DNA of 64,000 nt from an uncultured virus (IMG/VR IMGVR_UViG_3300021371_000011) (taxonomy: Duplodnaviria; Heunggongvirae; Uroviricota; Caudoviricetes), in IMG/VR virus record IMGVR_UViG_3300021371_000011, one strand, 5' to 3'. The notes beneath the pieces were generated by a model, which ran no database searches, was not told where the DNA came from, and saw only the letters and a list, made by a program, of their open reading frames with translations. The position numbers were made by a program, and so were the translations under genes. Positions 5,681 to 64,000 of this stretch are shown piece after piece; within the stretch, counting starts at the first letter, position 1, and each line of letters opens with the position of its first letter.

Positions 5681-5685
5681 ATATG

Positions 5686-5739
5686 ACGCTTGCGATACAG
5701 AACATAAAGTATATAACCGTAGAAAAATGAGGTATTAAC
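5686..5739 (+). promoter_or_regulatory. Outlier copy of the 18-bp motif (ACGCTTGCGATACAGAAC) plus TATATAAC promoter
   Basis: 17/18 identical to the copy at 63919; TATA at 5710, ATG 30 nt later. Confidence 0.7.
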
Positions 5740-5892
5740 ATGGGAGAAACAGACGACTGCGACCCTAGACACCATGAGTTTGATTTTGTTAGAATCAAGG
5801 GTGATAGTAGGGGAGACAGGATGTTAGTATATTGTACTTGTAGAGTATGTGGAATGCAGACAGCATTACACGGCACTATGGGTCTTTATTGA
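5740..5892 (+). CDS. 50-aa Cys/His microprotein (not in ORF track)
   Basis: MGETDDCDPRHHEF...CTCRVCGM..; ATG exactly 30 nt from the TATA box. Confidence 0.6.
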   Translation: MGETDDCDPRHHEFDFVRIKGDSRGDRMLVYCTCRVCGMQTALHGTMGLY

Positions 5893-5899
5893 ATCTCAA

Positions 5900-6008: not shown

Positions 6009-6028
6009 AAAAATAAGGAGAATATAAT

Positions 6029-6919: not shown

Positions 6920-6956
6920 GAAAATAGGACTAGAAATACAAACAGAGGAAACCAAT

Positions 6957-8356: not shown

Positions 8357-8365
8357 GGTATAAAT

Positions 8366-17000: not shown

Positions 17001-17705
17001 GTGCTTCTGATAGATGACCGAGAAAACCCTAAAGTAATTAATAAGTTGTTAATGAGATTGGGTGAAGAAAACACCCAAGTTTTACGGATGGCTTCTTCTG
17101 ATTACAGAATAGGTTCTTGGGGAATTGAGGCAAAAGAAATAAATGATTTGTACCGTAGTATCTTAGGTCTAGGTAGAAATGGTAGAACAATAGTACATCA
17201 ATTAAGAGAATTACAAGAAGATTTTGATAATCCTATGTTAGTAGTCTACGGTACTAAACTAAAACCGTATGTTCATGGTGGTAGACCGTCAGCAAAACAG
17301 ATAGCCATAGAGATGTCTAGGATGAAAAAAGTAAATCAACAATTCAAAATGACATTTTACCAAAGATTTCCTAAAATTAAGTACATGGAATTGACTACTA
17401 TGGATGATTTTGTTGAATGGTTGGTAATAAATCATACACAAACACAAGTAAAAGAGGCTACAGGTCTTAATGTTATGGAAAAAGAAACAAGAAGTGCTGC
17501 TGAAATGAGTAATTTAGACCCAAGAGTAGCGGCTTTATGTTCCCTTAAAGGTATTTCTGTACAGAATGCAGAAGATTTACTAAAAGAGTTTGGTAGCATA
17601 CCTAAAATACTAAGAAGTAGGACTACGCAGAAATCTATTATGGAAATCAAGGGTCTAGGTAGACTTAAAGCACAAACAATTTTAGGGTTGAGAGAGCCTT
17701 ACTGA
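17001..17705 (+). CDS. ERCC4/XPF-family nuclease with HhH motifs (putative resolvase)
   Basis: LIDDRE, SDY, IEAKEIND, LKGIS..AEDLLKEFGSI, IKGLG; CTTAAATA 30 nt upstream. Confidence 0.85.
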   Translation: MLLIDDRENPKVINKLLMRLGEENTQVLRMASSDYRIGSWGIEAKEINDLYRSILGLGRNGRTIVHQLRELQEDFDNPMLVVYGTKLKPYVHGGRPSAKQIAIEMSRMKKVNQQFKMTFYQRFPKIKYMELTTMDDFVEWLVINHTQTQVKEATGLNVMEKETRSAAEMSNLDPRVAALCSLKGISVQNAEDLLKEFGSIPKILRSRTTQKSIMEIKGLGRLKAQTILGLREPY

Positions 17706-35777: not shown

Positions 35778-38700
35778 TCACCCTACTACTATCCATGCTG
35801 ACGAAGATGTAGCAATAAATGTTTTTGCTTCATATCTTGTTGTAATTGTTTGATTAGTGGTAGAACCGTTCATTGTATCTGTACCATCAGCACTTATTGT
35901 AGTAGTCCCTGCGTGGTCGCTAATAATAATATATTGTTCCCCTACAGCCGGACTAGCAGGTAATGTTAATGTTGCGGTACTATTAACTATAATATATTTA
36001 CCTGCATAAGTATCTGATAATGTAATACTACTTCCTAATGTAGAAATCTTACCTCTTTTAGCAACAAACTCTTGTTCTACTGTTAGACCGCCGTTAGGTA
36101 TACTTACATCTCCAGAGTTGTCTGCTGTAATCCATGTTAATAATCCCGAACCGTCTGATATGGTTAATGATTGACCGACAGTTGCACTACTAACATCTGC
36201 ATTTCCTATGAGAACATTGTAACTTCCTGTGGTCAAACTACTTGCACCATTGTAAGAAGAAAGGATAATATTTTTCTGACCCGAAGTGATGTTTTGACCT
36301 GCATATCTTCCGACCCCAAGATTGTAACTTCCTGTCGTCAAATCTTTGAGACTGTCAGCACCAATTCCTACGTTTTGATTTGCTGCATTACTAGCAACCC
36401 CTTGACCTGCATTCCAACCAATGAAAGTGTTTGCCGAACCTGTTCCAGCCGTCATAGCATTATGACCTACAACGGTATTGTAGCCTGTTCCGTTAGTTCC
36501 GGCTTGACTTCCTACTATTGTCTCGGAATATCCTGTGCTACTAACACCTGCCCGATAACCAACATAAACTCCTGTGTTTTGATTGGTAATTGCTGCCCCC
36601 GCAGTATGTCCTATCATAACGTGGTCGCCACCTGTGGAAATTGCTGTTCCGGCTTGATAACCCATTAGAATATTCCTGTCTCCTGTGCTAAGTGTTGTTC
36701 CTGCGTCTACACCCAATGCTACGTTGTAGTTGCCACTTGATGCAGTTAAAGAATCTAAAGCACCACTACCTAATCCTATGTTAGAAGTAGCAGTAGTGAC
36801 TGCATCTGATAAATCACCAATACCACCTGCTACACCACTAGGTCCGGGTGGGCCATTAGGTCCCGGTGGACCTGCGCCACCTTGAGAACCCGGTGGTCCA
36901 CTAGGTCCGGGCGGCCCTGTCGAACCGGGCGGGATTGTAAAGGCAAAAACCTTAGCAGTCGCAGGTCCACTAGATGCAATTGCTAACGGACCACTTGCTA
37001 CCGTAGGCGTTCCAAATCCGGCTGCTGCCCCATCTGACCCATTAGAACCGGGTGGACCTGTAGGTCCTGTTGGCCCCGGCGGTCCTGCCGGACCTGCTGC
37101 GCCTTGTGGTATAGTAAATGCGAATACTTTAGCAGTATCGGGTCCACTTGTACTAACCGCAATAGGTCCTGTACTAGCAGACGCACTACCAAACCCTGCT
37201 GCTGCCCCTGTAGAACCTGTAGGGCCGGGTGGTCCTGTTGGTCCGGTTGGGCCGGTTGGACCTGTCGGGCCTGTCGCACCTTGTGGTATAGTGAATGCAA
37301 AGACTTTCGCTGTATTAGGGCCACTAGAAGATACGCCTATTGGTCCTGTGGTTGCTGTAGGTGTCCCAAATCCTGCGCCCGGTCCTATTGCACCTGTCGG
37401 ACCTGTACCGCCGGGTGGCCCGGTAGGACCCGTTGGGCCTGTAGGACCTGTAGGTCCTGTATCACCTTGTGGTATAGTAAAAGCAAAAACTTTTGCGGTG
37501 TCGGGACCGCTTGAAGAAACTGCTATGGGTCCGGTACTAGCGGTTGGAGTACCAAATCCTGCTGCCGTTCCTGTAGGACCTGTAGGACCTGTTGGGCCGG
37601 GTGGACCTGCGCCGCCCGAAGGACCGGGTGGACCTGTTGCACCTTGAGGAATTGTAAAAGCAAATACCTTAGCAGTATTTGGGCCACTAGATGAAACACC
37701 AATAGGGCCTGTTGTAGCCGTAGGTGTTCCGAATCCCGCAGCCGCACCCGTAGGACCTGTACCACCATCGTTTCCATCATTACCTGTCGGTCCGGTAGGA
37801 CCTGTTGGTCCGGGTGGCCCTGCGGGTCCTGTGCTTCCGGGCGGAATTGTAAAAGCAAATACTTTTGCGGTATTAGGACCGCTACTAGATATGGCTAAAG
37901 GACCACTACTAACACTTGGTGTCCCGAATCCCGCAGCACTACCTGTTGGTCCTACAGGTCCACCACTACCTGTCGGTCCGGGCGGTCCCGTAGGTCCCGT
38001 AGGTCCGGTTGGGCCTGTTGGTCCGGCATCTCCGGCAGGTATAGTAAAAGCAAAGACCTTTGCTGTATTTGGACCACTACTACTTATAGAAAGCGGACCG
38101 GAAGAAACAGTTGGTGTTCCGAATCCTGCTGATGTTCCCGCAGGTCCGCTTCCACCTGTATTTCCTGTTGGACCCGTAGGACCCGTAGGACCTGTAGGAC
38201 CATCCGGTCCCGTTGGTCCGGTTGCACCTTGTGGTATGGTGAAAGCAAATATTTTTGCTGTATTTGGACCGCTTGTTGAAACACCTATTGGTCCTGTGGT
38301 TGCCGTAGCAGTCCCAAATCCGGCGGCTACACCTGTAGGTCCTGTTCCGCCTGTGCTACCTTGTGGTCCCGGTGGGCCATTAGGTCCGGTAGGTCCGGTA
38401 GGACCTGTAGGCCCTTCATCACCTTGAGAACCCGGCGGTCCTGTTGGTCCTGTGCCGCCACTAGGTCCTGTTGGTCCTGTTGGCCCTACACTACCTGTAG
38501 GTCCGGTATCTCCTTTATCTCCTGTTCTAGCAAAAGTTACCATAACATCTTCGCCATCTGAAAATGGTGCAGAAGCAGAAGAATCTATTGTACTTACTGT
38601 TATGTCAAAGTAGCCCGAATCTTCTGATAGAGAAGTAATAGTATGTAAAGTAAATTGACCTGCATCTGTTAAATTACTAATTTTAACGTGTCCTTTTATC

Positions 38701-41498
38701 GCAGATGTAGAATCATCTATTGTACGAAGGAATGATTGAATATCTGTTCCGTCTAAATCGCTGTCATCTATATAGATTCTAGTAGCAGATGATTGAGTAG
38801 CGTTGTTTAGTTTTACCTTACCTGCGCCGGGGTCGCTGTCTGCTGTATTTGTAGAAAAATCATATTTAAAGGATGCGCCACCAAAATTACCGTCTGCGCC
38901 TGTAGGTCCTGTCGGTCCGGTAGGACCTTGACTTCCTGTACTACCCGCCGGTCCGGTAGGCCCTGTCGGTCCGGTTGGACCCGCAGGACCTTGACTTCCT
39001 GTAGGACCTTGTGGTCCGGTAGGCCCTGTAGGTCCTGTCGGAATTGTAAAGGCAAATACTTTAGCACTATCCGGCCCACTTGTCGCTACTGCTAAAGGTC
39101 CTGTAGTTATGGTAGGTGTTCCAACACCTGCTGATGCACCCGCCGGTCCTGTAGGACCTGTAGGACCTTGACTTCCTGTTCCGCCTGTTGGCCCTGTTGG
39201 GCCTGTTGCACCCGTAGGTCCTGTAGGCCCGGTACTACCCGGTGGAATTGTGAAAGCAAATACCTTTGCTGTGTCCGGCCCACTAGAACCGATTGCTAAA
39301 GGACCACTAGATACTGTCGGTGTTCCAAAACCTGCGGCTGTTCCGGTAGGCCCTGTATTACCCGTAGTACCTTGAGGCCCTGTAGGTCCGGTTGGTCCTT
39401 GAGAACCTGTAGGTCCATTTGGTCCGGGTGGACCTGCCGCGCCTGTGCTACCTGTAGGTCCTGTAGGCCCATCCGGTCCTGTAGCACCTTGAGGTCCTGT
39501 AGGTCCATCCGGCCCATCCGGTCCTGTAGGTCCTGTATTTCCAATAGGCCCTTGACTGCCCGTTGGACCTTGAGGTCCTGTAGGTCCTGTAGGACCGGCA
39601 GGTCCGGTATCTCCTTTATCACCCGTTCTTGCGAATGTGACTAAAATATCTTCTCCCGCACTAAAAGGTGATGTAGCAGAAGAGTCTATACCACTTACTG
39701 TTATATCAAAGAAACCTGTTTGTTCACTTAGTGAAGAAATAGTAAATATTATAAATTGTGAAGCGTCTAGTAAATTACTTATCTTTACATGACCCTTTAT
39801 TGTAGAAGTAGAGTCGTCTATTGTTCTCATAAAAGATTGAATATCGCTACCGTCTAAGTCGCTATCATCAATAACAATATGCGTAGCAGCATTTTGCGTA
39901 GCACTATTTAATCTTAGTTTACCTGCGCCGGGGTCTGCTATACCATTAGCAGCATCAAAATCATACTTAAATGAAGCACCACCAAAATTACCATCCGGTC
40001 CTGTCGGACCTGTAGGTCCTGTACTACCTGTCGGACCTGCTACGCCTTGTGGACCTTGAAGGCCGGTAGGACCTTGTGGTCCTGTTGAACCTGTTGTGCC
40101 TTGTGGACCTTGTGGTCCATCCGGTCCTGTCGGGCCTTGTGAGCCTGTCGGTCCTGTCGGGCCTGTCGGTCCCGCTACTGTAGAATCTGCACCTGTAGGG
40201 CCTGTTGGACCTGTCGGGCCTGTTGGCCCGGTATTACCTTGTGGGCCTTGAGGTCCTGTACTTCCCGTAGAACCTGTAGGTCCTTGTGGACCTGTAGGGC
40301 CTGTAGGCCCTTGTGAACCTAATTGACCTGCCTGTCCAAAGTTTAAAACATATTTTGTGTTGTTTGTAAGAACGTCTGTTTGACTAGCAGTATTAGGAGA
40401 TACACCTAGTGTGTACCATCCGGTATTATCTGTGACAGTATTAACTATAAAATTAGCAAACTCTTCTACATCCCCACCTATATGTTGTATTTGTAATAAA
40501 CCCTTTCTAGTGTTATTAGATGCACTTATAAAAGTAAACCAAGCATCTTGATTTACAGCACCGGCATCTTCTTCATCTATATAGATTTCAGTAATGTTAG
40601 CAAATGTACCATTGTCAAATCTCATAAACCCCGAACCGGGGTCTGCTTCTGTTGTAGTGGTACTAAACTTCCAAACTACTCCCGATTTAAAACCTGCGGG
40701 ACCTTGAGGTCCTGTAGGACCGGAAGGAATAGTAAACGCAAAGACTTTAGCGGTATCGGGTCCACTAGCAGTTATACCTACGGGGCTACCTGTGACAATA
40801 GTAGGTGTACCAAACCCTGCCGCCGCACCTGTTGAACCTGTATTACCTTGTATTCCTTGTGGACCTTGTGGACCTGTATTACCTGTAGAACCCGTAGAGC
40901 CTGTCGGTCCCGTTGGTCCTTGTGGACCTGTCGGTCCTGTAGGACCTGTATTCCCTTGAACACCTTGAATACCTTGAATACCTTGTGGGCCTGTTGGCCC
41001 TGTAGCATTATTTTGATATGCAATCCATGTATCTTGTGTAGCACTATGCCTTACATATACTTTTTGATTTTGTGTTAAGGTAAAAGTACCACCTGTACCC
41101 GGATTAGTGACCCCTTGACCTACAAGAGAAACTACTGTACCTGCATCAGTACCAATAGTAATATTACCGCTACCTTCATTCATAATTTGTAATTCTGATA
41201 GACCTACCGGAAAAGGAACGGAAGCGTATGTAGGTAATGTGTATGTATATGTAGAAGAGTCAGTATGTATAATCATACGTGCTTCGTCTGCTCTAGTAAA
41301 TGTATAATTAGCGTTTTTTGTTTCTAGTGGCCTAACGTCTGCCGACCTACCACCTGCTGTAGAACCATCACCAATAAAAACACCATTAGCGGCTGAACCT
41401 GTATTTGTATCTAGGAATATTTGTTCTTTAGTAGGTGTGACACCCGCCCTTTGGGTAGTGGTAGCAGTAAAAAGATTTTTATTACCTGTTAGTGCCAT
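35778..41498 (-). CDS. Collagen-like virion fibre (1906 aa)
   Basis: Long Gly-X-Y (mostly GPT) tracts, 11 AK(V/I)FAFTIP modules, 3 globular repeats, C-terminal NxxxG adhesin-like repeats. Confidence 0.85.
36830..41005 (-). repeat. Coding collagen repeats and interspersed module repeats
   Basis: GGACCTGTAGGTCCTGT-like 9-nt periodicity; local rise in GC content. Confidence 0.9.
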
Positions 41499-53628: not shown

Positions 53629-54804
53629 ATGGATGAACTAGTGTTTCACCAAATAGGACGCATAGAAAATGAATGCCCTCTTGGAGTTAAAGACTCCTTA
53701 GAGGATAGGGTAGACTCGGAGTCTAAGACCCTTATAGAGATAGTAAAAACTCTCGGAATTACCACAAAGAAAGGTGAACATTTCAAGAGATATTCTTCAA
53801 TGATTAAGAAACTAAAAGAAGTCGGCTTCCCTATCATAGATTTACCAAACAAAGATATTACTAAAATGAATCTTCAATTAAAGATTTTACCAAGTAAATC
53901 GAATGCTATCGTATCATCATATAAATCGGATGAACTAGGTAGAAGTGTAGACCCTTCAAACAAGAATGTTAAGAGATACTCAAAGCAAGATTTCACAACC
54001 CAACCGAGAAAGATTTGTTCATGTCATTTCAATGATAAATACCGAGAAGATAAATCAGCGACAGCACCGATTTGCTATGCTATCTTAGAGAGTAATACTA
54101 ACCCCAATGAAATCAAACATATTGGAGTAGGTTCAAAGTGTCGTGGTCATGTCTTAAATCACTTCGATTATTACTCATTAGAAACTTATTACACAAGTGC
54201 AATTCTTGAAGATTATTGGAAGAGTATTTTACTCCCGACATTAGACTTCAATAAGTACAATGATTTCACTATGAAGAGAGCATCTAAATTGAACCTAAGA
54301 TTCAATCAAGATGATTCACCATTCAAAGAGCCATTCTACTCAAACAACCAAGATAACCGACACTTAGAACATCCACTAAATGAGAATGAAAAAGGTGTTT
54401 GTATTGACTGTAATTCCCAAGGTTTTCAATGCCTAACAAAACAGAAAAAGAACGGTCATAAAGAAGTGTTCGGAGAAATGCAAGTTAACACCCTTGATTA
54501 TTGGGGTTGGCAATCAGAGACTTTTGATATGGTTGGTCTTGAACAATCATGGAATCAACCAAAGTATTTGATGAATCTCGATACTAAAGAAATTAAGTCC
54601 GTTGAAGAATGGGGTCTTGATGGTTTCAGATGCCGACCCGTTTGGAGATATACAATTGCTTGCTTCTTAGGTAGAGAAAATCAAATTGGCTTCGGTTGGG
54701 TTAAGTTTCAACCAACAGACAGACTAATGAATGCACTAAATAAAATCAATAATGTATCTACTACAAATCTACTGTTTGAGGATATAGACGGGGGGTACTA
54801 TTAG
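53629..54804 (+). CDS. Hypothetical protein with Cys motifs
   Basis: Long ORF with CSC, CYA, GSKC and CIDC motifs. Confidence 0.7.
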   Translation: MDELVFHQIGRIENECPLGVKDSLEDRVDSESKTLIEIVKTLGITTKKGEHFKRYSSMIKKLKEVGFPIIDLPNKDITKMNLQLKILPSKSNAIVSSYKSDELGRSVDPSNKNVKRYSKQDFTTQPRKICSCHFNDKYREDKSATAPICYAILESNTNPNEIKHIGVGSKCRGHVLNHFDYYSLETYYTSAILEDYWKSILLPTLDFNKYNDFTMKRASKLNLRFNQDDSPFKEPFYSNNQDNRHLEHPLNENEKGVCIDCNSQGFQCLTKQKKNGHKEVFGEMQVNTLDYWGWQSETFDMVGLEQSWNQPKYLMNLDTKEIKSVEEWGLDGFRCRPVWRYTIACFLGRENQIGFGWVKFQPTDRLMNALNKINNVSTTNLLFEDIDGGYY

Positions 54805-54810
54805 ACGTAA

Positions 54811-54844
54811 AGGGGGTTAGGGGTCGTCAAGACCTCTAGCCTCT
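54811..54844 (+). terminator. Hairpin after gene 53629-54804
   Basis: GGGGGTTAGGGGTC-GTCAA-GACCTCTAGCCTCT. Confidence 0.45.
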
Positions 54845-54874
54845 CTTAAAACATCACAATAGGGGGTAAAAAAC

Positions 54875-54982
54875 ATGAAAGAAATAGTAAAGTGTACAAG
54901 GTGTAAATCATACCTTTGGGAATCTTCTCAAATTGTATGTAAGGAGTGCTTTGATGAATGGAAAGCAACGGTGATAATATGA
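54875..54982 (+). CDS. 35-aa Zn-finger microprotein (not in ORF track)
   Basis: CTRC..CKEC; GGGGGT RBS; ATGA overlap with the next gene. Confidence 0.5.
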   Translation: MKEIVKCTRCKSYLWESSQIVCKECFDEWKATVII

Positions 54983-55278
54983 GTTTAGAAAATGGAGATA
55001 TAATCGTAGTGAAATGGATGATAAAAACGTCAAAGAAAAAAATATGGACTTCCGTATTTACTGACTTTGATGATTACTTAGATTTCATTGATTCGGGAAA
55101 TAAAATAATAATAACACAAGACCGAAAAAATAATGTTTTTGGTGCATGGCTAAAAAGACTTCAAACAGAAGAAGAAAAGACAAATGATGATTTTGAATTA
55201 ATGGATTATTTAGAAGAGATAGAAACTATTGAGGATGAAAGAATGAACGCGAAAAAGTCGAGAAAGGGGGTGATATGA
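54979..55278 (+). CDS. Hypothetical protein
   Basis: GGTGA RBS before ATG 54979. Confidence 0.6.
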   Translation: MSLENGDIIVVKWMIKTSKKKIWTSVFTDFDDYLDFIDSGNKIIITQDRKNNVFGAWLKRLQTEEEKTNDDFELMDYLEEIETIEDERMNAKKSRKGVI

Positions 55279-55279
55279 A

Positions 55280-55597
55280 ATGACTATAACTAAGAAAACT
55301 GAATTAGATTTTAAAGAAGCAACACTAAAATATAGATGCAAGAAAACAGGAAAAATTGAAATCAGAACAGCAAATCTACAAGAGTGGTTTGAAGATGAAG
55401 AGTTTGATTTAATTGGGTTTGAAACTGAAGAAATGAGTAATCTAAAATATAAATTAGAACATTTAATTTGCGGTTTGTTTGATGCTGACAGAGAATTGAA
55501 TAAAACAATTAATGCTTTGAAACCTAATCTTGAATACCAAAGAAAAATTATAAGAGATAATTTATTAGATATTGACACTAAATCTAAATCACTTTGA
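55280..55597 (+). CDS. Hypothetical protein
   Basis: GGGGTGA RBS. Confidence 0.6.
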   Translation: MTITKKTELDFKEATLKYRCKKTGKIEIRTANLQEWFEDEEFDLIGFETEEMSNLKYKLEHLICGLFDADRELNKTINALKPNLEYQRKIIRDNLLDIDTKSKSL

Positions 55598-55628
55598 TTA
55601 GATTTAATATTAATCGGATTTACAAAAA

Positions 55629-55703
55629 ACTTCTAGGGATATATTCCTAGAAGTCGAAATTAATTAGGTCGGCCACCGAATATCGGTGGTCGGCCTTTTT
55701 TTT
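55629..55703 (+). terminator. Two hairpins plus T-tract
   Basis: ACTTCTAGG..CCTAGAAGT, then AGGTCGGCCACCGA-ATA-TCGGTGGTCGGCCT-T7. Confidence 0.7.
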
Positions 55704-55976
55704 ATTTTTACAAAAGTCAACCCTACAAAATATAACCCTACATTTTTATTTCTAGGCGTTAACCCTACAAAATATAACCCTACAAAATAAAAACCCTACA
55801 AAATATGACCCTACAAAATATAACCCTACAAAACATAGTCCTACAAAAGTCTGAAAGAATCTGAAAAATAAAAATGTTTTCAAAAATTAAGAATCCAAAC
55901 CCTACAAAAGAATCCAAACCCTACAAAAAAAAGGTAAGGTAGGGGTCTAGTGTCCCCCTACCCTACAAAAGTTTTT

Positions 55977-56270
55977 TTATATTATTTGTATATCAGTATA
56001 TGTGTCGCTTGATTTTTTTACGGTGTATGTTTTTTTACTAACTTTTCCATCTGGGTTAAATATTGTTATTTCGCCTTTGCCGTATTTTTTCATTCCGTGT
56101 ATAGACATATTTACAGTACCATTTTCGTGTTCATATATATTAAAACGAACACCACCTACCGTAATGTAATGAAGGGCTGATTTCTCGCCCTCTCTAGGAA
56201 CTAATTCAATACTATGAATCTCCTCTAATCGCAGTCTAGTGCCAGCCTCTAGGTCAATCTCCTTTACCAT
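55977..56270 (-). CDS. Hypothetical protein embedded in the repeat field
   Basis: Motif-free 97-aa ORF; CTATAAGC about 29 nt upstream. Confidence 0.6.
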   Translation of the reverse strand: MVKEIDLEAGTRLRLEEIHSIELVPREGEKSALHYITVGGVRFNIYEHENGTVNMSIHGMKKYGKGEITIFNPDGKVSKKTYTVKKSSDTYTDIQII

Positions 56271-57089
56271 GTTTTAGTCTAATTACATTTTGCTTATAGT
56301 ATTATCTATAATCAATCTCTTTATTTTGTAGGGTTATTTTTTATTGTGTGATTATTTCTCCCTACAAAATATTATGTATCTTTTTTTATTATGCCCCTCT
56401 AAGTAGGGGGGTTTCAGCCCAAAAAAAACAAACCCTACAAAATAATAATAAGTGTAGTTTTTACACTAAGTGTTGTGAATAACACCGAATAACCCTACAA
56501 AATAAGTTTTTTCGTAAAAAAAACCCTACAAAATAAGGAGATTCATAATAATAGTCTTTATATAGGTAAACAGCATCTCATTACGGATAAGTGGTTTTGC
56601 GAAATTGTTTTGTAGGGTCGAAATAACATGGCCGGATTTGACATAGAGTCTAGCGGATAAAAAATAAACCCTACAAAATAAAAAAAACGCTGTACTGCGG
56701 CGGTGCAAAAAGTAAACCTGAGATTTTTTACCTACAAAATAAAACCTACAAAAGATTTTCCTACATTTTCTTAGCCATGATTATTTTGTAGGGTTTCCAA
56801 GAGTGAAAAAAATATTTTGTAGGTTGAAAAAGTGCAGTTAGTGTAAAATCTACACCGAGTGTCAAAAAACTCACCAAGTGAGAAAGACACACTAAGTTAT
56901 TTTGTAGGGTATTACTATTGAGAAAAAACTAAAATCCTACAAAATATTAAATACTAAGATTATTTTTTGGGTAAAACAAAACCCTACAAAAGACAGGCTA
57001 TAAGCGACCGAAAAACACTAAATATAACCCTACAAAATAAGGAGAATGAGAATAGAAACGCTTATATAGGGGAACTAATATTGTATATT

Positions 57090-57668
57090 ATGACTAAAAT
57101 TAAGAAAGCGTGCAGATATAAGAAATGTAAAGGGGTTATCCATCGAGGTAAATGCCCCGTCGCCTCAAGTCGAGGTTCAAAAGGTGGCAGCACTACCGGA
57201 AAATCAAAAGCGAGAACGGGTTCAAATAATGGCCGATTTACAGGACTTCGAGAATGTGGATGTCCTAAGCGTCAACATTTACCTTCATGTATTCATTCTC
57301 AATTGACATTACAAAAAGTCAAAATTATTAATGCACATGATTTCAATTATAATTCAAATCTACCACTAGAAAATTATCAGCAAATCATTCAATCTAAGTT
57401 TCCAAAATCTCAACCGAAAGTTAGAATTGCCCGAAAAGAAAATATTCCACTCAAGAGAACTGTCGCCAAATGGGAATTAGAAAATGCCGTCAAGGTAAAA
57501 TCAATTCCACATTATTCATTCTTAAAATATACAGGCGTGTGTGCCTCATGTGGGTGCGTGCGTGATGTGCATGATGCACATATGATACACGTAGATGATA
57601 TAAAATACAAATTACCCGAAGAACATTATTTCAAGGCTCGGATTGTTTGCCACGCTTGCGAAGCATAA
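57090..57668 (+). CDS. Basic Cys/His-rich protein
   Basis: ATG 57090 lies 29 nt after CTTATATA; several Cys/His clusters and a GSKGG motif. Confidence 0.65.
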   Translation: MTKIKKACRYKKCKGVIHRGKCPVASSRGSKGGSTTGKSKARTGSNNGRFTGLRECGCPKRQHLPSCIHSQLTLQKVKIINAHDFNYNSNLPLENYQQIIQSKFPKSQPKVRIARKENIPLKRTVAKWELENAVKVKSIPHYSFLKYTGVCASCGCVRDVHDAHMIHVDDIKYKLPEEHYFKARIVCHACEA

Positions 57669-57796
57669 TCGGAGACTATAAATAGTATTAAAGATAGGTG
57701 AAAACATGGACAAAAGAGGCGTAAATAATAGAGGCACTACTCAAAGAATCGTGAATATGCTTCTCGATGATTCTAAAAATTACGGGAGAAAAAGAT

Positions 57797-58018
57797 ATGA
57801 AAATTAATTATGAAAAATATTGCTATAAGATTGATAGTAATTACGGCCTTCATTATAATAATTCTTATTATAATGTTGGTGGTGATGGTAAAGTTTCACA
57901 ATGTAAAATAATAATTGTTGATGACGGTTATGGAATCATCAAACCATTTTCATTTACTTTTGAAATATCTGAGCCTACATTTTGTAGGGTTGGAAATGAC
58001 GCTTGCGAAGCACAATGA
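57797..58018 (+). CDS. Hypothetical protein ending in the motif
   Basis: GGGAG RBS before MKINYEK; C-terminal DACEAQ is encoded by the motif. Confidence 0.5.
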   Translation: MKINYEKYCYKIDSNYGLHYNNSYYNVGGDGKVSQCKIIIVDDGYGIIKPFSFTFEISEPTFCRVGNDACEAQ

Positions 58019-58160
58019 GAGACTTTAAATAAGATTGACGATAAGATTAAATTGTAAGAAAAACAACGGAGACAAAAAATATGTATGAAGATAGCGAATG
58101 GCTAAAAGAGATGATTAAAAAGACGAATGCGGGAATGATTTATTTGGCGGGGTCTGAGAG

Positions 58161-58280
58161 ATGAAAGATTTACGCCCGACACTTCAAAACCGAAAAGATT
58201 TGAGAAAGTCAAATCCGCCCTTGACCCTTTGGGCAAGGCAGCAAATTGACAAACTCGGTTTTAATGCCGAGCAATTCTGA
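58161..58280 (+). CDS. 39-aa microprotein
   Basis: ATGA-coupled to the 27-aa ORF 58081-58164, downstream of promoter unit 57999. Confidence 0.4.
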   Translation: MKDLRPTLQNRKDLRKSNPPLTLWARQQIDKLGFNAEQF

Positions 58281-58934
58281 GCCTACATTTTGTAGGGTTA
58301 GAAATCCCACTCCCGCCCGTTGAGCGTTGATTTCGGGCTGCATCCTAAGCATGATGTGAGATTGCGAATAACCTATTGACGAGTAGGCGAAAACTTTCGG
58401 AAACTGCTTACATTTAACGAAAAAGAAAAAAAGATTTACGCAAAAAAGAAAAGAAAGCCTTCCGGCATTAGGTTCGGAAGAGGACTTTCTTTTAAGGTCA
58501 AAATACCTTTCGGGGTGCATCCATTTCGGGTGCATCCCACTTTTTTTATTTTTATAGCCTATATTTTGTAGGGTTAAAGATTCATTTTTTTTTATTTCAG
58601 ATTCAAATATTTTGTAGGGTACTTACTTCTTCCGCAAAAATAATTTTGTAGGGTCGCCCTTTTTTTCTACACCCATACACCCTACAAAATAATTAAGCCT
58701 GTCTTTTGTAGGTTAATTACATTTACAGTAAAACTAAAAATCCTACAAAAGATTTCAAATCCAAAAACTAAAACCCTACAAAATAAAACCGTAAAAGAAA
58801 AAAATAAACTCAAAAATAAACCCTACAAAATATAGGCTAAAGAGAAAAAATAAAACTCAAAAATAAACCCTACAAAATAACGCTTGTGTAGCAAAATAGT
58901 AGCCTTTTTATAGTAGTAGTTTTTAGTAGTGAAC

Positions 58935-59393
58935 ATGATGTTTGGAGAACACGATAGACAGATAATTAGTATAGAGAGAGAAAAGTTTAGAGAAATTAAA
59001 AAGGGAGATATTTTTTTCATGGGTCAAGATAAAGTTAGAGTTTTGGCAAAAGTAAATAAAGTTTCTTGGCGTTATGAAAATGGTAGAGAGTTTTATTGGT
59101 TTAGTATGAAATATATAGCAAGAAAAGATTTAGAAACAGGCGAAGTTAAAAGATGGAATGAAGAGGAATCTCTTAGGAAAAACGGAAAAGAAAGAAAAAA
59201 TATTGATAATACCAAATATGGTTTTCTTTTAAGTTATTCTTGTAATCAAGAAGAAGGTACTCAAAGACATTTACCGCTTCGTTCTTGGGGGTTCTCAATT
59301 TCACCCGAAAACTTTGAACACCATTCAATTTTCATGGAATCACCCGATACAGATTTTAATTTAGATTTCTACTACGCTTGCGTAGCAGAATGA
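58935..59393 (+). CDS. Hypothetical early protein
   Basis: ATG 30 nt from TATA 58905. Confidence 0.7.
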   Translation: MMFGEHDRQIISIEREKFREIKKGDIFFMGQDKVRVLAKVNKVSWRYENGREFYWFSMKYIARKDLETGEVKRWNEEESLRKNGKERKNIDNTKYGFLLSYSCNQEEGTQRHLPLRSWGFSISPENFEHHSIFMESPDTDFNLDFYYACVAE

Positions 59394-59428
59394 TAACAGT
59401 TAAATAGAATGAAAAAGGAGAATTAAAT

Positions 59429-59626
59429 ATGAGCCAAAACACAAAAGAGATATATGGGGTATGGAATATCCATGACTTAGAGAAGCAAATAAAAAGATTT
59501 AAGAAAAATGAGAGAGAAAATCTAGGCGTAAAAAGACTTAGTAGAAATGCTAATGTCGTAATAGATTTTACTAGTGTTGAAGATTCATCCGGTGATTCCC
59601 AATTATCAATTAAGGAGATGTACTAA
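59429..59626 (+). CDS. Hypothetical early protein
   Basis: ATG 30 nt from TATA 59399. Confidence 0.65.
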   Translation: MSQNTKEIYGVWNIHDLEKQIKRFKKNERENLGVKRLSRNANVVIDFTSVEDSSGDSQLSIKEMY

Positions 59627-59854
59627 ATGACATACAACGGTTGGACAAATAGAGAAACATGGCTTATTAATTTACATTTTGAGCCGAAAAATCAAGGAGA
59701 TATTGAATGGTTAAGATTACAATTAGAAACAGCATTTCGCAAAATGACTGTTGACCATTTTTACGGTAATTTTTTCAATGATTTAATTAATTTCCAATTA
59801 ATCAATTGGGATGAATTAGCAAATCACGTTCAAGAAAATTACGAAGAAGAGTAA
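59627..59854 (+). CDS. Hypothetical protein (YNGWTNRETW type, common in viruses)
   Basis: N-terminal motif; GGAG RBS. Confidence 0.7.
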   Translation: MTYNGWTNRETWLINLHFEPKNQGDIEWLRLQLETAFRKMTVDHFYGNFFNDLINFQLINWDELANHVQENYEEE

Positions 59855-59909
59855 GACGCTTGCGAAGCAGAATGACAAGGCTTATATAGTAGCACTTATA
59901 TGTATATAT

Positions 59910-60290
59910 ATGAGCAAAGAGGTGATTAGAATGAATGATATAAAACTTTTAATGAAAAAAGAAACGGTAGATGGGACTTATAAAAAAGATGGAACGAGGA
60001 TAAATAGAGAAGTAGGCTATGCAGTAGGCTTAGTCAAAGGTGATGGATTTACTACTTTTAACGTAAATGAAATTATGACTAAGTTTTTGGCTACAAGAGT
60101 AAATTATCCAAATGCTGAATATATAGGTATATGGACTAGAAAAAACGGCCAAATGGTTTTTGACCCAATTGCTATTTATGAAAATATTAAAGATGCTTTC
60201 AAAGTAGCGACAAGAAATCGTCAAGATGCAATTTGGGATTTCAAAGAAGGCAAAGAAATAACGCTTGCGAAGCAGAATGAGAAGGTTTAA
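59910..60290 (+). CDS. Hypothetical early protein
   Basis: ATG 29 nt from TATA 59881; IGIW..QDAIWD. Confidence 0.7.
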   Translation: MSKEVIRMNDIKLLMKKETVDGTYKKDGTRINREVGYAVGLVKGDGFTTFNVNEIMTKFLATRVNYPNAEYIGIWTRKNGQMVFDPIAIYENIKDAFKVATRNRQDAIWDFKEGKEITLAKQNEKV

Positions 60291-60327
60291 GTACTAGGGC
60301 TTATATGAATATACAGGAGATAAAAAC

Positions 60328-60801
60328 ATGACGACAGGAATATGGATTAGAGATAAAACTTTAGATAAAAACGTAGTATCAGCAGAAGGTTGCGTAGAAG
60401 ATATTACAGACGTAAAAATAAGATTTAAGATTTTTCAGCATCAAGATTGGTGGCTTGATAAATATGACGGGTTTAATTTAGGAGATGACTTTTATTTATG
60501 GCTTGAGAATCTTGCTGATAATACAAATATTCACATCCCCCGCAATAGATACGATAGTACTTATTATATAGGTATCTATGAGAATGAAAAAGTTAGAATT
60601 AGGATAAAAACAAATAGAAATATAGAGAGAGATTCAGATTCACATTGGTTAAAAAAGTGGGGCGGAAAATTACAAAAACCCCTCGGTACACCAACAGTTT
60701 CAACGCTTATGAAGCAGAATAACGTATATCCAATAAATATGAAGCCAAGTGGCATCACGATAAAGAAGGAAACGCTTGCGAAGCAGAATCAACAGGTTTA
60801 A
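60328..60801 (+). CDS. Hypothetical early protein
   Basis: Downstream of unit 60261; GGAG RBS. Confidence 0.65.
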   Translation: MTTGIWIRDKTLDKNVVSAEGCVEDITDVKIRFKIFQHQDWWLDKYDGFNLGDDFYLWLENLADNTNIHIPRNRYDSTYYIGIYENEKVRIRIKTNRNIERDSDSHWLKKWGGKLQKPLGTPTVSTLMKQNNVYPINMKPSGITIKKETLAKQNQQV

Positions 60802-60825
60802 ATAGTAGGGCGGAGATGGATATAT

Positions 60826-60933
60826 ATGAGCAAATACACACCGATGATAGATGATAGACATATAACAGAGTGGAATGAATTAATGAAAAAAGTGGTAGAG
60901 AAAGTTAAAGACGCTTGCGAAGCAGAATCGTAA
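60826..60933 (+). CDS. 35-aa microprotein between two motif copies
   Basis: ATG 29 nt from TATA 60797; ends DACEAES. Confidence 0.5.
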   Translation: MSKYTPMIDDRHITEWNELMKKVVEKVKDACEAES

Positions 60934-61067
60934 GACTTAAATAGTAGGGCTAATATGAATATATATAAGTAAAAAGGTGATTAAATGGAAGAAGAAGATT
61001 ATATGACTAAAGAATGGATATTAAGAAAGTGGAAAGCAACAAGAATTATTAAGGGGGATGGAGAAGA

Positions 61068-61346
61068 ATGACAAAGACACCGATAGAAGCATTACAAGAT
61101 TTTGATTTTACAGTCAATACTCATAAAGATGCTACGACAATAAAGTATGACCCGAATGCACCTTTAATTAGGGCTAAAACTAATTATGCTAAAGATAAGT
61201 ATAATGAATCTAGTAAAAAAGAAAAACAACGCTTGCGAAGCAGAATCGTAAGCCTTAAAAGGAATGACGAATTAGTTAGTTTTGTGGGAGAAGTAATACC
61301 CACACCAATAAAAGAAAAAAAAGGAGATAAAAAAAATGAAATATGA
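61068..61346 (+). CDS. Hypothetical protein reading through motif 61229
   Basis: Coupled to the 28-aa ORF 60985-61071. Confidence 0.5.
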   Translation: MTKTPIEALQDFDFTVNTHKDATTIKYDPNAPLIRAKTNYAKDKYNESSKKEKQRLRSRIVSLKRNDELVSFVGEVIPTPIKEKKGDKKNEI

Positions 61347-61530
61347 AATAGGAATGAAAGTAAGTTTCGGGCGACCGAATGGAGAAAAGACTGAGGGTAT
61401 TATCATAAAGATAAACCCTAAAAGCCTCAAGGTGCGAACCTTAGAGAGTCGTGGTAGAACGGGTAGGTCTGTTCAAGGGACTGTCTGGAAAGTACCGAGA
61501 GATGAAAGATACGCGAAGGTGATACAATGA
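61336..61530 (+). CDS. Small SH3/KOW-like beta-barrel protein
   Basis: IGMKVSF..EGIIIKINPKSLKV..WKVP. Confidence 0.6.
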   Translation: MKYEIGMKVSFGRPNGEKTEGIIIKINPKSLKVRTLESRGRTGRSVQGTVWKVPRDERYAKVIQ

Positions 61531-62516
61531 GTATGAGAAATATGTTAGGGGCTTATGCCCGATTTGGAAAAGAAGCACAAGGAACGACTGTGAAAGAGGT
61601 ATTGCAGAATGCAAATGCCGATTTCAATATTGGTATGGAATCTGTCTATACTAAAGATGGAAAGGTTATACCTAACCAATTTAGGACATTTAGAGAAGAT
61701 ACCGATGAGACTTTTGGTGTCGTAAAAGGCACATACAAAGTTATGCAAAATGAAAGATTGTTAAATATATCTGACGATTTGGTAAAGAGAGAAAAAGTAA
61801 TTTGGGATAGAATTGGACTTGTAGATAACGGTAGAAAAATCGTAGCATCTTTTAAGATGCCCGAAGGTTTCTCTATCGGTGGAATGGATGATGTAGACCA
61901 ATATATCATGCTTCAAAATACTAATGACGGTTCGGGTGGAATCCGTATTTTACCCTCAAATGTAAGAATTGCTTGCAGTAATCAATTTACATATATGCAA
62001 AGTCTATTGAATAAAATGGGTATCAATAAAAATGCTCTAACTATCAGACATTCAGCACGTCAAGAAGATAGGATTGCACAATTGGTAGAGGCTCTAAAAA
62101 TTGTAGACCATCTCAATCAGACATTCATGGAAACAGCGACAGAATTAATCAATGTTGAAATGTCTCAAGATGACAGAATTAATTTCTACATAGATACTTT
62201 AGGGCTAAAACAAAATGAAGATATGATGAAGGGCGGCAAAGATTATGATGCTAACAACCCTTACGGATTAGGCACTAGAGGTCAAAATACTCTAACCACT
62301 TTGTTAGACTTAGAAAAATCAGATACGAATACTATCAACGGTATGGAAAATAGTGCTTGGGCTGCTTTCAATGTGGCTACGGAGTACATAGACCACGCAT
62401 GGAGTCATAGCAAAGACGGCAAATCTAGCGATAGCAAAGTAGAATCAGCAATCGTAGGTGCGGGTGCAAGAATGAAGTCAAACGCATGGGAGACTATCAC
62501 GGAGATGTACGCCTAA
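61527..62516 (+). CDS. DUF932-family protein
   Basis: FGVV..YKVMQN, NDGSG, RIACSNQ, IRHS, AWAAFNVATEYIDH. Confidence 0.85.
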   Translation: MSMRNMLGAYARFGKEAQGTTVKEVLQNANADFNIGMESVYTKDGKVIPNQFRTFREDTDETFGVVKGTYKVMQNERLLNISDDLVKREKVIWDRIGLVDNGRKIVASFKMPEGFSIGGMDDVDQYIMLQNTNDGSGGIRILPSNVRIACSNQFTYMQSLLNKMGINKNALTIRHSARQEDRIAQLVEALKIVDHLNQTFMETATELINVEMSQDDRINFYIDTLGLKQNEDMMKGGKDYDANNPYGLGTRGQNTLTTLLDLEKSDTNTINGMENSAWAAFNVATEYIDHAWSHSKDGKSSDSKVESAIVGAGARMKSNAWETITEMYA

Positions 62517-62530
62517 GATTTATCGTAAAA

Positions 62531-62573
62531 GTAAGTAGGGGGTTAGTACCCTCTACTTACGCCTTCGGGCGTA
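62531..62573 (+). terminator. Hairpins after the DUF932 gene
   Basis: GTAAGTAGGGGG..CCCTCTACTTAC and ACGCC-TTCG-GGCGT. Confidence 0.55.
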
Positions 62574-62648
62574 GCCTATCTTTTGTAGGGTTTACGCTTG
62601 CGAGGCAGAATGAATAGATTTAAGTAAAAAGAAAAAGGAGTGAGATAT

Positions 62649-63062
62649 ATGACAAGAGCGAGACACGGCAGACACGGAGAAATATGCAAGAGACAAAACG
62701 GAAGAATAATGATGACTGTAAGACCGACACCATCGATTTTAGATGATACAGATATAGCCATGCTTATCGGTTATATTACTAATGTAGGTAGGCCGGATTA
62801 TTATAGTGAAGAAGTTATATCCAAATCTGATGCTAAACAGGCAATACACGATTGGGAATATAATACAGGTAGTATTACACCTTTGACAAAGAAAATGGTT
62901 ATGATGTATCTAAGAAGTAATTATTACTTAGGACAAATTGAAGAACAAACCGATTTGATTGATACCTATGATGAAGATTGTGGGGTATGTCAAGCATTGT
63001 TAGAAAGAGTACATGAGATATTCCCTTCTTTTGTGGTAAAAGAAACTGAGGTGGTCGCATGA
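62649..63062 (+). CDS. Hypothetical early protein
   Basis: ATG 30 nt from TATA 62619. Confidence 0.65.
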   Translation: MTRARHGRHGEICKRQNGRIMMTVRPTPSILDDTDIAMLIGYITNVGRPDYYSEEVISKSDAKQAIHDWEYNTGSITPLTKKMVMMYLRSNYYLGQIEEQTDLIDTYDEDCGVCQALLERVHEIFPSFVVKETEVVA

Positions 63063-63307
63063 GTAATCCTTACGTTTCTCCTATGGCCGCAAATCAGTTT
63101 AGGATATATCATGGTGATACGATAACATTTCAATCATACAATTCAATAGTATGCACCAAAATTGAAGATAGAGTAATTTTACATGAGCCATATTGGGATA
63201 TGTATTCGGCAACCACTAACAAATATTTACTAAGATTCTTAGAAGATGATTCAATTAATACTATTAGGGCAAAAGTAAAGTCGGGAGAATATGAGGTGAT
63301 TGCATGA
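63059..63307 (+). CDS. Hypothetical protein
   Basis: GAGGTGG RBS; FQSYNS..YSATT.KY motif. Confidence 0.65.
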   Translation: MSNPYVSPMAANQFRIYHGDTITFQSYNSIVCTKIEDRVILHEPYWDMYSATTNKYLLRFLEDDSINTIRAKVKSGEYEVIA

Positions 63308-63441
63308 GTTCATATGACGGATATAAAAAAGTTCTCAAGGATTTGCATAACCATTCACCCGAAACAAAGGCTTTAGTAGATAAATATATGAAGATTCATC
63401 TTGATGCGTTTCTTAATGATAAAGAGAGTAGTGAGTTTTAA
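63304..63441 (+). CDS. 45-aa microprotein (not in ORF track)
   Basis: GAGGTGA RBS; coupled to neighbours at both ends. Confidence 0.55.
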   Translation: MSSYDGYKKVLKDLHNHSPETKALVDKYMKIHLDAFLNDKESSEF

Positions 63442-63977
63442 TGAATCTAAATATTATTAGAAATCAAGTTTACAATTGGATAAACGAATCTGATACAGAT
63501 TTTAATTTACATTTCGGAGAAAACAAACTTTACTTGGTTGTAGAATGGATTGACGGTAAATCACTTTTTATGGAAGATTATTTTGATTTTAATATAAAGG
63601 GCAGAATGGCTTTTATGAATGAATTGATTATGACTTATTGTGATTTAGATGAAGATACTGATGAGGTAAAAGTAATTTGGTTTAACAAATTATTCGGAAT
63701 CGGTAGTGAGTATCATGGAATCGCTGATGACGCTTTAGAACACAAAGAGGGCTTCACACCAATAGGTGTCTATGATGTTGAAGGTGTAGGTCTATGTACG
63801 GGTGTATCATTTGCAGAAAGACAGACCGCTTCTTTCACAGGAAAACCGCCTGTATTCTATGAATGGACATACATTTGCGACACTTGCACTTACGAAGAAG
63901 ATGAATGTAAATGTGATGACGCTTGCGATACAGAATCGGCAGACTTAAATAAGATGGAAAAGGAGAGAGATATATGA
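63441..63977 (+). CDS. Acidic hypothetical protein
   Basis: TAATG coupling; reads through motif 63919. Confidence 0.6.
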   Translation: MNLNIIRNQVYNWINESDTDFNLHFGENKLYLVVEWIDGKSLFMEDYFDFNIKGRMAFMNELIMTYCDLDEDTDEVKVIWFNKLFGIGSEYHGIADDALEHKEGFTPIGVYDVEGVGLCTGVSFAERQTASFTGKPPVFYEWTYICDTCTYEEDECKCDDACDTESADLNKMEKERDI

Positions 63978-64000
63978 GTAAAAGAGAAGAAGAGATGGTA

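Follow-up and report, generated by a model that had tools for sequence, protein, structure and literature searches.

The 64,000-nt stretch of uncultured virus DNA recorded as IMGVR_UViG_3300021371_000011 (Caudoviricetes; its whole length is called the window here) raises the question of why one 18-bp word, ACGCTTGCGAAGCAGAAT, stands in front of one small gene after another. A first-pass annotation, made from the letters of the window, had described 12 copies on the same strand, 11 of them exactly 7 nt ahead of a TATA-like octamer and seven followed by an ATG 29 to 30 nt from the TATA start, and had regarded them as portable promoter units of an archaeal type. We confirmed the 12 copies (57652-63936), the fixed gap before the listed octamers in 11 of the 12, and the ATG distance in seven units (Table 1). 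From sequence comparison, the most fitting reading is that of an upstream element specific to one promoter class, part of an archaeal-type promoter cassette and conserved across putative Marine Group II (MGII) viruses.

An array of motif-TATA units and its conservation

When the window was searched for ACGCTTGCGAAGCAGAAT with up to 3 mismatches, 13 matches were found, all on the plus strand. Twelve make up the array (5 exact, 4 with 1 mismatch, 2 with 2, and 1 with 3), and the 13th, with 3 mismatches, lies outside it at 5686. Among 100 dinucleotide-preserving shuffles, the mean was 0.05 matches and the maximum 1, and none reached 13. In the four units other than the seven mentioned above, the ATG follows 42 to 82 nt from the TATA start, each time behind a Shine-Dalgarno (SD)-like site. 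Because the 18-mer overlaps the 3' ends of upstream open reading frames (ORFs) in three reading frames and is also present in noncoding DNA, it is conserved as a DNA signal and not as a peptide. Although the ending ...ACEA is shared by several upstream ORFs, the same facts rule out a peptide reading.

A scan of related viruses, which the first-pass annotation had suggested, turned up the unit again in dozens of related contigs, whose G+C contents span 34 to 51%. The exact 18-mer was found in six IMG/VR contigs with an identical layout. A syntenic relative, G001 (61,012 bp, 92% complete; G+C content of 49.8%, against 37.5% in the window), carries 13 to 14 units on one strand at 44.7 to 51.8 kb, between the gene for the large terminase subunit (TerL) and the replication genes. 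Using the Cys-rich protein that heads the array as a bait, we fetched 34 viral and 80 metagenome loci. The window and these 114 related loci contain 329 promoters defined by a strict TATA octamer and an ATG 29 to 30 nt later alone, the motif not being used in the selection, and ACGCTT was located exactly 25 nt before the TATA start in 222 of them. When the motif and a strict TATA box were both required, 130 units were obtained on the plus strand and none on the minus strand (35 sources). The general pattern was detected at 79 loci in viral contigs, with at least two matches in about 11 contigs; single matches in unrelated contigs look like chance. In relatives, the array extends at least 5.4 kb past the point orthologous to the end of the window, and the DNA of at least 5.7 kb beyond the array showed no overlap with window positions 1 to 7000, as checked for a wrap of the genome.

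An asymmetric core rather than a dyad

The conserved part of the element is an asymmetric core, (tG)ACGCTTGCGA, i.e., ACGCTT(G)(C)GA, which is 10 nt or about one helical turn in length and stands 15 nt before the TATA box. The first-pass annotation had proposed that an activator binds a GCTT-N3-AAGC dyad, but this was kept in only 37 of 55 units in the lineage of the window (lineage A), 10 of 48 in a second lineage (lineage B), and 21 of 95 in the others. Since the dyad is poorly kept, the conserved element is the asymmetric core and not the palindrome.

Positions 1 to 6 were fixed by selection in our position-by-position comparison, and their independent support is the unselected count of 222 in 329 given above. 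Position 7 is G in lineage A and in the other lineages, and A or T in lineage B; position 8 is C in 80 to 85% of the units of A and the others, and A in 92% of those of B. Further downstream, G at position 9 (99 to 100%), A at position 10 (75 to 100%), C at position 13 (88 to 100%), A at position 14 (71 to 100%), and A at position 17 (84 to 100%) are preferred, as is G at position 0, immediately 5' of the motif (56 to 81%). Within one genome, positions 15 and 19 to 25 vary, and positions 1 to 10 and 13 are near invariant. An offset of 25 nt from the motif to the TATA start is dominant across units. The 7-nt stretch before the TATA box is variable and, like a B recognition element (BRE), rich in purines and A, with no sharp consensus: A occurs 3 nt before the TATA box in 62 to 86% of units and 4 to 6 nt before it in 60 to 67% in the other lineages. 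The consensus downstream of the motif, taken from 90 units with the ATG at 30 nt, runs from the TATA box through aaAtgaA.a, AGGAG, and 8 nt ending in AT to the ATG.

Promoter geometry

In archaeal promoters, the TATA box is centered 26/27 bp before the transcription start site (TSS), a purine-rich BRE lies just upstream of it, and activator sites are found upstream of the BRE, whereas repressor sites usually overlap the BRE and TATA box or lie downstream (PMC5512572, in its available text). The promoter-like nature that had been assigned to the units was borne out in this respect, with an archaeal-type TATA box and, just ahead of the BRE position, a conserved element; as the 18-mer ends 7 nt before the TATA box, a specific site directly abuts that position. 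In 97 of the 130 units, an ORF-opening ATG follows 29 to 30 nt after the TATA start, which puts the octamer center 26 to 27 nt before the ATG. This equals the published TATA-to-TSS distance and thus fits transcription starts at the ATG. Besides, a pyrimidine (T or C) immediately precedes the ATG in all 153 such units; among other genes of the window, this holds for 26 of 53 (Fisher 2e-19, which is overstated because the copies are related). The archaeal initiator has a pyrimidine at -1 and a purine at +1, and if the start is the A of the ATG, every one of these units carries that feature.

The spacing of 29 to 30 nt is also seen at SD-less genes outside the array, namely, the portal gene at 49790 (minus strand), the gene at 34763 (minus strand), the ERCC4 gene at 17001, and the Cys-rich gene at 57090. 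A scan with the sigma-70 consensus, i.e., TTGACA-like and TATAAT-like hexamers (the latter with A at position 2 and T at position 6) separated by 16 to 18 nt, reported 0 of the 12 units, and the array region contained 19 sites versus 29.2 in shuffles. The geometry fits archaeal leaderless initiation at the ATG and not a sigma-70 promoter.

A second promoter-like class was observed in the replication block, with the pattern (T/A)TATAAC/TCG(t/a)aaGAaaa followed by an SD site (the TATATAACCG class). It is present at 449, 5710, 9892, 12176, and 14452 on the plus strand, where the TATA start lies 30 nt before the ATG of five genes, including that of the family B DNA polymerase (PolB), and it comes without the 18-mer except for the degenerate copy at 5686. 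This could be a middle class.

A lineage-wide switch and candidate trans factors

Lineages A and B were sorted by the type of Cys-rich protein that they carry, and the window is of the A type. Position 7 of the motif is G in 55 of 58 distinct units of A-type contigs, the three exceptions being chance ACGCTA matches, and in 95 of 96 units of the other lineages; it is G in none of the 48 units of lineage B (40 have A and 8 have T). Units of lineage B usually also have A at position 8 and T at position 12, such that GC at positions 7 and 8 turns into AA or TA. The two lineages share TerL, a nuclease, and a small neighbor at 93 to 99% amino acid identity, and alleles of the array have been exchanged between them. 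For instance, window 62649-63062 is 92% identical to a B genome and 63 to 65% identical to some A genomes, and at window 59627-59854 one A and one B genome match at 90% identity and the rest at 51 to 60%. The motif type is uniform in each genome though cassettes cross between A and B, which suggests selection to match something in the genome or the host. The switch in lineage B points to a putative matching trans-acting factor.

Over the approximately ±8 kb compared, a categorical difference between A and B is confined to the module at 53.6 to 57.7 kb. When window 53629-57668 was set against 3726-8838 of locus L226, from a genome nearly identical elsewhere, the module between the TerL block and the array was found replaced or highly diverged, with TerL 97 to 99% identical. 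A 391-amino-acid (aa) protein of the module (53629-54804) is 24% identical to its B counterpart, and several of its small genes have no B homologue. The Cys-rich protein is 86 to 99% identical within A, 59 to 60% identical to that of B, and only 28 to 36% identical across lineages that share the core (G+C, 34 to 51%). Its gene heads the array in all lineages, and the protein was found only in these marine viral contigs. Three invariant Cys/His clusters are present (C8 C13 H18 C22; C56 C58 H63 C67; C151 C154 H167 C187 C190), and the first motif copy codes for the C-terminal residues of the protein. In the promoter of this gene, ACGCTT directly abuts the TATA box (57058-57068), in A-type genomes only. 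The Cys-rich protein is one candidate trans factor, next to its B-type counterpart, the 391-aa protein, an HTH-like protein (11700-12056), and the small array proteins; Pfam gave no family match for it and no recognized DNA-binding family in any factor candidate.

Next to the array lies a field of 35 CCCTACAAAA repeats (55721-58877). With up to 1 mismatch, 37 of 38 copies fall in 55721-58877, plus 62581-62590, in both orientations, and 6.7 copies were expected by chance. The field includes a tandem run with a period of about 15 at 55763-55848, occupies the noncoding DNA flanking the Cys-rich gene, and is interleaved with units 2 and 3; it counts as neighboring context, not as a component of the promoter unit. 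The repeat word at the orthologous place differs by lineage (TGCCTACAAAAC, AAATCCAAA, ACTACAAAAC, ACTACATAAC, GTTACAAAAC, TTACTACAAATTA, CCTACGAAGT, and TTATATACC), and from A to B it changes from CCCTACAAAA to TGCCTACAAAAC. The field looks like iterons, belonging to an origin or a packaging site, whose evolution goes along with that of a protein binding them, and the divergence of the Cys-rich protein could equally be compatible with a service to these iteron-like neighbors.

Units as joints of gene exchange

The portability that had been claimed for the units was supported by comparison with relatives, since homology blocks break at units. One relative (L001) is without window 58898-59373, a gap lying exactly between two units, and carries at the joint a chimeric unit whose 5' part is like that at 58880 and whose 3' part is like that at 59374. 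The copy at 60703 and the next 69 nt look like a recombination scar, because in another relative (L011) the orthologous gene ends directly at a single full unit. Besides, the cassettes stand in a changed order in L010, and assembled metatranscriptome sequences from relatives show two junctions, of 59861 with 62615 and of 62654 with 61149, each of them at units. We compared the internal ends of homology blocks of at least 150 nt against 16 related loci and found 36 of 152 ends within units, where 11.8% would be expected by area (p = 3e-5). Among relatives, the array shows a mosaic gene content.

The units are placed at insertion, deletion, and replacement junctions of close relatives, in the way of the promoter early stem-loop (PeSL) elements of T4-type phages. 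The terminator/promoter composite of PeSLs was not found, as no conserved hairpin occurs at the units; only two terminator-like hairpins with T-runs lie near units on the plus strand, at 62557-62584 (after a DUF932 gene) and at 58512-58547 (in the repeat field).

The virus and its probable host

The window is laid out in three blocks. The first, on the plus strand (0.5 to 17.7 kb), is devoted to replication and encodes an RFC-like clamp loader, a GroEL-type chaperonin, PolB, a PD-(D/E)XK nuclease, and an ERCC4 nuclease. The second, on the minus strand (17.7 to 49.8 kb), is structural, with tape measure, tube, collagen-like fiber, and portal genes. The third, again on the plus strand from 50.1 kb, comprises an Mre11-like nuclease, TerL, the repeat-rich noncoding field, and finally the small-gene array. 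The longest contigs among the relatives measure 68 to 72 kb, and the window (about 64 kb) is thus most of a genome of about 70 kb.

The best solved relatives of PolB are archaeal-type PolB chains of 773 to 793 aa at about 1e-27, with Deep Vent and Pyrococcus abyssi named among them; the other best-scoring chains are presumably also Thermococcales enzymes. Eukaryotic polymerases alpha and delta come next, and Escherichia coli Pol II and RB69 polymerase score about 1e-12. In a phage collection, haloarchaeal tailed viruses gave the best PolB matches, at approximately 25% identity, and the array was without a match in a DNA search of the same kind of collection.

Putative viruses of MGII archaea (Poseidoniales) have been described with a like gene set and with GroEL inside the replication block, the host link being stated as inferred, and GroEL has been reported from both MGII viruses and some MGII genomes (PMC5434244 and PMC5332604, in their available text). 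The gene set of this magrovirus/MGII group, as far as given there, consists of PolB, a clamp loader, a clamp, a primase, MCM, a RadA-like protein, nucleases, an HK97-type structural module, and often a chaperonin. The window contains PolB and the RFC-like, GroEL, ERCC4, PD-(D/E)XK, Mre11-like, portal, TerL, tube, and tape measure proteins of such a set; a clamp (PCNA), MCM, and a primase were not recognizable among the window proteins by Pfam or PDB sequence searches. The virus resembles the magroviruses (PMC5434244) and MGII virus clades 2 to 4 with GroEL (PMC5332604), again by the available text, in being tailed and marine and in having an archaeal-type PolB, an RFC-like clamp loader, nucleases, and GroEL in the replication block. 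It differs in size (about 68 to 72 kb, compared with about 100 kb in the first magroviruses) and in the three unrecognized replication proteins. Judging from gene content together with this literature, the host probably belongs to the Poseidoniales/MGII archaea. A scan of genome contigs with a degenerate motif-plus-TATA pattern gave single chance matches only, in assorted bacteria and a few archaea, among the matches listed; no Thermoplasmatota were among the matches listed, so the scan is uninformative on Poseidoniales rather than negative.

Interpretation of the element

We consider it probable, though well short of certain, that each unit is an archaeal-type promoter cassette with a core read by a factor. 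Counted from the ATG, whose A is taken as +1, the core ACGCTTGCGA lies within the 18-mer at about -55 to -38, followed by the 7-nt purine/A-rich stretch at the BRE position, the TATA octamer at -30 to -23, the SD site (about -13 to -9), and the pyrimidine at -1. The TBP, TFB, and RNA polymerase of the host would start at or next to the ATG and give a leaderless mRNA, and the SD site would serve read-through transcripts from upstream units. A sequence-specific protein on the core, held at a fixed distance from TFB/TBP, would set the activity of this promoter class, most likely by activation through TFB/TBP recruitment, the mode known from other archaeal sites that lie just ahead of a BRE. The class would drive the block of small genes with fast turnover that stands after the terminase region and before the replication module and, by its position, would probably be early. 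We infer from the lineage B switch that the specificity of the factor is matched to the virus lineage, the factor being either virus encoded or tied to host range. Being near-identical repeats, the units also act as crossover points for swaps of gene cassettes, as seen in the breakpoints at them, which are moderately enriched.

A bolder version, which we put forward very tentatively and rate as rather improbable, is that the core is read by a virus-encoded activator from the hypervariable module, comprising the triple-zinc Cys-rich protein (57090-57668, with a leaderless promoter of its own that is without the motif) and its 391-aa neighbor, which docks beside host TFB/TBP and switches on the array. 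Lineage B would then be a natural swap of specificity in which the protein and all its sites changed together. If this is true, the archaeal viruses that are most abundant among the uncultured ones of the surface ocean would possess an early-gene transactivator with a built-in address code that can evolve.

Several observations weigh against the cassette reading or against parts of it. Of the 97 units with an ATG at 29 to 30 nt, 89 carry an SD-like site between the TATA box and the ATG, which a strictly leaderless mRNA would exclude, and in a bacterium a -10-like box, a short leader, and an SD site would be the ordinary layout. The SD sites can be explained by read-through if every array gene is assumed to lie also inside transcripts from upstream units. 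Two marine metatranscriptome runs contain relatives as assembled contigs without 5' ends, strand, or level and cannot prove transcription; they matched 8 to 9% of the words, and the uncovered parts carry no meaning. The chaperonin is of the bacterial GroEL type, and the best phage matches of TerL are cyanophages, at 25% identity. The enrichment of breakpoints at units is only two-fold, and the loci compared are not independent. Furthermore, the lineage B switch is a single evolutionary event, and simple common descent could account for its association with the upstream module. As to the factor, the AlphaFold model of the Cys-rich protein is poor (pLDDT, 58; pTM, 0.34), the Atlas leads for it are HNH-nuclease-like at 0.85 to 0.87, below the tool's mark of 0.9, and the near-complete G001 encodes no homologue of TFIIB, TBP, or sigma-70 region 2.

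Other explanations have to be set beside that of a factor-read cassette. The core might be the operator of a viral or host repressor that shuts the class off later, by blocking TFB access or by spreading, with promoters that are strong on their own. Tailed phages commonly shut off their early genes as a class, the TATA octamers are so near the consensus (TTTAAATA and CTTAAATA) that the promoters may need no help, and the conservation and the lineage-specific switch fit any sequence-specific binder, a repressor included. However, sites upstream of the BRE are typical of activators, with repressor sites elsewhere (available text of PMC5512572), and the rigid 15-nt distance from the core to the TATA box suggests a stereospecific contact with basal factors, and we regard a repressor as unlikely. 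Still more doubtful in our view is that no dedicated factor exists, recombination or gene conversion keeping the repeat alike, and that the unit is a PeSL-like joint of cassette exchange or a DNA-shape element aiding TFB/TBP. The block ends at units (36 of 152), the exact deletion in L001, the 69-nt scar at 60703, and the mosaic gene content speak for such a role, as does the use of repeated promoter/terminator cassettes in this manner by T4-type phages (PMC4122927, in its available text). Conversion would homogenize the neighboring positions too, yet positions 15 and 19 to 25 vary beside the near-invariant positions 1 to 10 and 13. The core is, moreover, kept across G+C contents of 34 to 51% and alongside Cys-rich proteins that are 28 to 36% identical, and the change in lineage B is confined to a few positions in all 48 units.

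A bacterial host would make the unit a sigma-70-type promoter, with TTGCGA (motif positions 5 to 10) as the -35 box, TAAATA as the -10 box, and a short leader with an SD site. The spacer between these hexamers is exactly 17 nt, the SD-like site in 89 of 97 units suits a leader of about 16 nt, and GroEL is of the bacterial type. This explanation is nevertheless very unlikely: TAAATA is without T at -7 (the final T), none of the 12 units passes the scan, TTG has become TTA or TTT in every one of the 48 units of lineage B, and the invariant ACGC lies outside any -35 hexamer. A leadered bacterial mRNA would give no role to the 29- to 30-nt rule or to the -1 pyrimidine (153 of 153), SD-less genes share the spacing, PolB is of the archaeal/eukaryotic type, no sigma factor gene was found in G001, and GroEL is reported, in the available text of PMC5434244 and PMC5332604, from MGII viruses and some MGII genomes. 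We give hardly any credence to the 18-mer as the promoter of a virus-encoded or virion-carried RNA polymerase of the T7 or N4 kind, for which the TATA-like box would be incidental. Phage RNA polymerases typically use long, near-identical promoter words, GCTTGCGAAGC can fold into a small hairpin of the kind found in N4 early promoters, and a 2,277-aa ORF (17699-24532) is without a family match. This ORF, however, lies next to the tape measure gene, in the tail module, and no Pfam RNA polymerase match was obtained among 28 large ORFs of the window; a PF00940 search of G001 was empty too, but control genomes were equally silent. The hairpin is lost in lineage B (kept in 10 of 48 units), and the TATA octamer with its distance of 29 to 30 nt is as conserved as the word and recurs at genes without it.

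Relation to known systems and significance

T4 middle promoters (with the MotA box) and T7-group promoters are class-specific promoter words of tailed phages. The present element is like them in that one word would mark one temporal class and be read by a dedicated factor; it differs in the transcription machinery involved, and both the timing of the class and the factor are putative here.

Archaeal upstream activating sequences (UAS) next to the BRE are known for EarA (Methanococcus fla), Ptr2 (M. jannaschii rb2), TFB-RF1 (Pyrococcus pf1089), and the Sulfolobus ara-box (PMC5512572, in its available text). The element shares with them a short specific site that adjoins the BRE/TATA box on its upstream side, placed to help recruit TFB or TBP. 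In contrast to these, a single site stands at a rigid distance before at least a dozen viral promoters in each genome, is conserved throughout a virus group, may be bound by a viral protein, and accompanies TATA boxes that look strong rather than weak. With the PeSLs (PMC4122927, in its available text), the units have in common that small repeated regulatory cassettes precede many small variable genes, with indels and swaps at the cassettes. A PeSL is a bacterial sigma-70 early promoter with a terminator hairpin, whereas the unit has an archaeal-type TATA box and an upstream core and lacks a conserved hairpin, and its breakpoint enrichment reaches only two-fold.

The first-pass annotation had stated that no description of the element was known, and we likewise found none in the literature. 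The words "promoter" and "TATA" are absent from the available text, supplements aside, of papers on MGII viruses, including PMC5434244, PMC5332604, and PMC11706807, and "motif" occurs in the available text of the last only as "HTH motif." Searches with the 10-mer core, alone or together with archaea, returned only unrelated literature. In kind, the element belongs with known classes (archaeal UAS, phage class promoters, and PeSL-like cassettes).

MGII archaea and their viruses are uncultured, and the literature searched on these viruses is silent on transcription control. A 10-nt word at a fixed distance from the TATA box offers a testable handle on transcription control in such hosts, and a word shared before a dozen small genes marks a separately controlled gene set. 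The 29- to 30-nt rule together with the -1 pyrimidine can help tell archaeal from bacterial viruses in metagenomes. Besides, promoter cassettes can act as crossover points of gene shuffling in archaeal viruses, as in T4-type phages.

Coordinates and neighboring features

Table 1. Positions in the window of the motif-TATA units, of two degenerate copies, and of the Cys-rich gene. Distances run from the TATA start to the ATG.
Feature	Span	Strand	Motif	TATA octamer	ATG (distance)	Remarks
Cys-rich protein gene	57090..57668	+		CTTATATA 57061, motif-less	57090 (29 nt)	192 aa, basic; no SD
Unit 1	57652..57708	+	57652-57669 (1 mismatch)	TATAAATA 57677-57684, after N7	57706 (29 nt)	motif overlaps stop codon of Cys-rich gene
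Unit 2	57999..58083	+	57999-58016	TTTAAATA 58024-58031	58081 (57 nt)	SD-led ATG
Unit 3	58880..58937	+	58880-58897 (3 mismatches, GTGT variant)	TTTTTATA 58905-58912	58935 (30 nt)	no SD; motif directly adjoined by iteron-like CCCTACAAAATA
Unit 4	59374..59431	+	59374-59391	GTTAAATA 59399-59406	59429 (30 nt)	AGGAG
Unit 5	59856..59912	+	59856-59873 (exact)	CTTATATA 59881-59888	59910 (29 nt)	no SD; further SD-led ATG in frame at 59931
Unit 6	60261..60330	+	60261-60278 (exact)	TTTAAGTA 60286-60293	60328 (42 nt)	SD-led ATG
Degenerate copy	60703..60720	+	60703-60720 (2 mismatches)	ATCCAATA in place of TATA		69 nt upstream of 60772 copy, within ORF 60328-60801
Unit 7	60772..60828	+	60772-60789 (exact)	TTTAAATA 60797-60804	60826 (29 nt)	
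Unit 8	60911..60987	+	60911-60928 (exact)	CTTAAATA 60936-60943	60985 (49 nt)	SD-led ATG
Unit 9	61229..61338	+	61229-61246 (exact)	CTTAAAAG 61254-61261, weak	61336 (82 nt)	SD-led ATG; within ORF 61068-61346; also kept in relatives
Unit 10	62594..62651	+	62594-62611 (1 mismatch)	TTTAAGTA 62619-62626	62649 (30 nt)	AGGAG; hairpin and T-run 62557-62584 upstream, 3' of DUF932 gene
Unit 11	63919..63976	+	63919-63936 (2 mismatches)	CTTAAATA 63944-63951	63974 (30 nt)	AGGAG
Outlying copy	5686..5742	+	5686 (3 mismatches)	TATATAAC 5710-5717, second class	5740	heads replication module

An Rfam search of window 55000-64000 with E values up to 0.1 matched no RNA family. The array protein encoded at 59627-59854 matched Pfam DUF7249 over its first 27 residues (30.8 bits; cut-off, 27). 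The array of G001 (7170-7733 of locus L019, minus strand) encodes a pyrimidine-dimer DNA glycosylase (Pyr_excise, 5e-09) without a counterpart in the array of the window; this is an example of cassette cargo and may matter in sunlit surface water. In the structural block, the 2,277-aa ORF mentioned above is on the minus strand, and a 1,906-aa collagen-repeat fiber is encoded at 35778-41498 (minus strand) in a region with a G+C content of about 0.49 to 0.51, compared with 0.35 to 0.38 around it.

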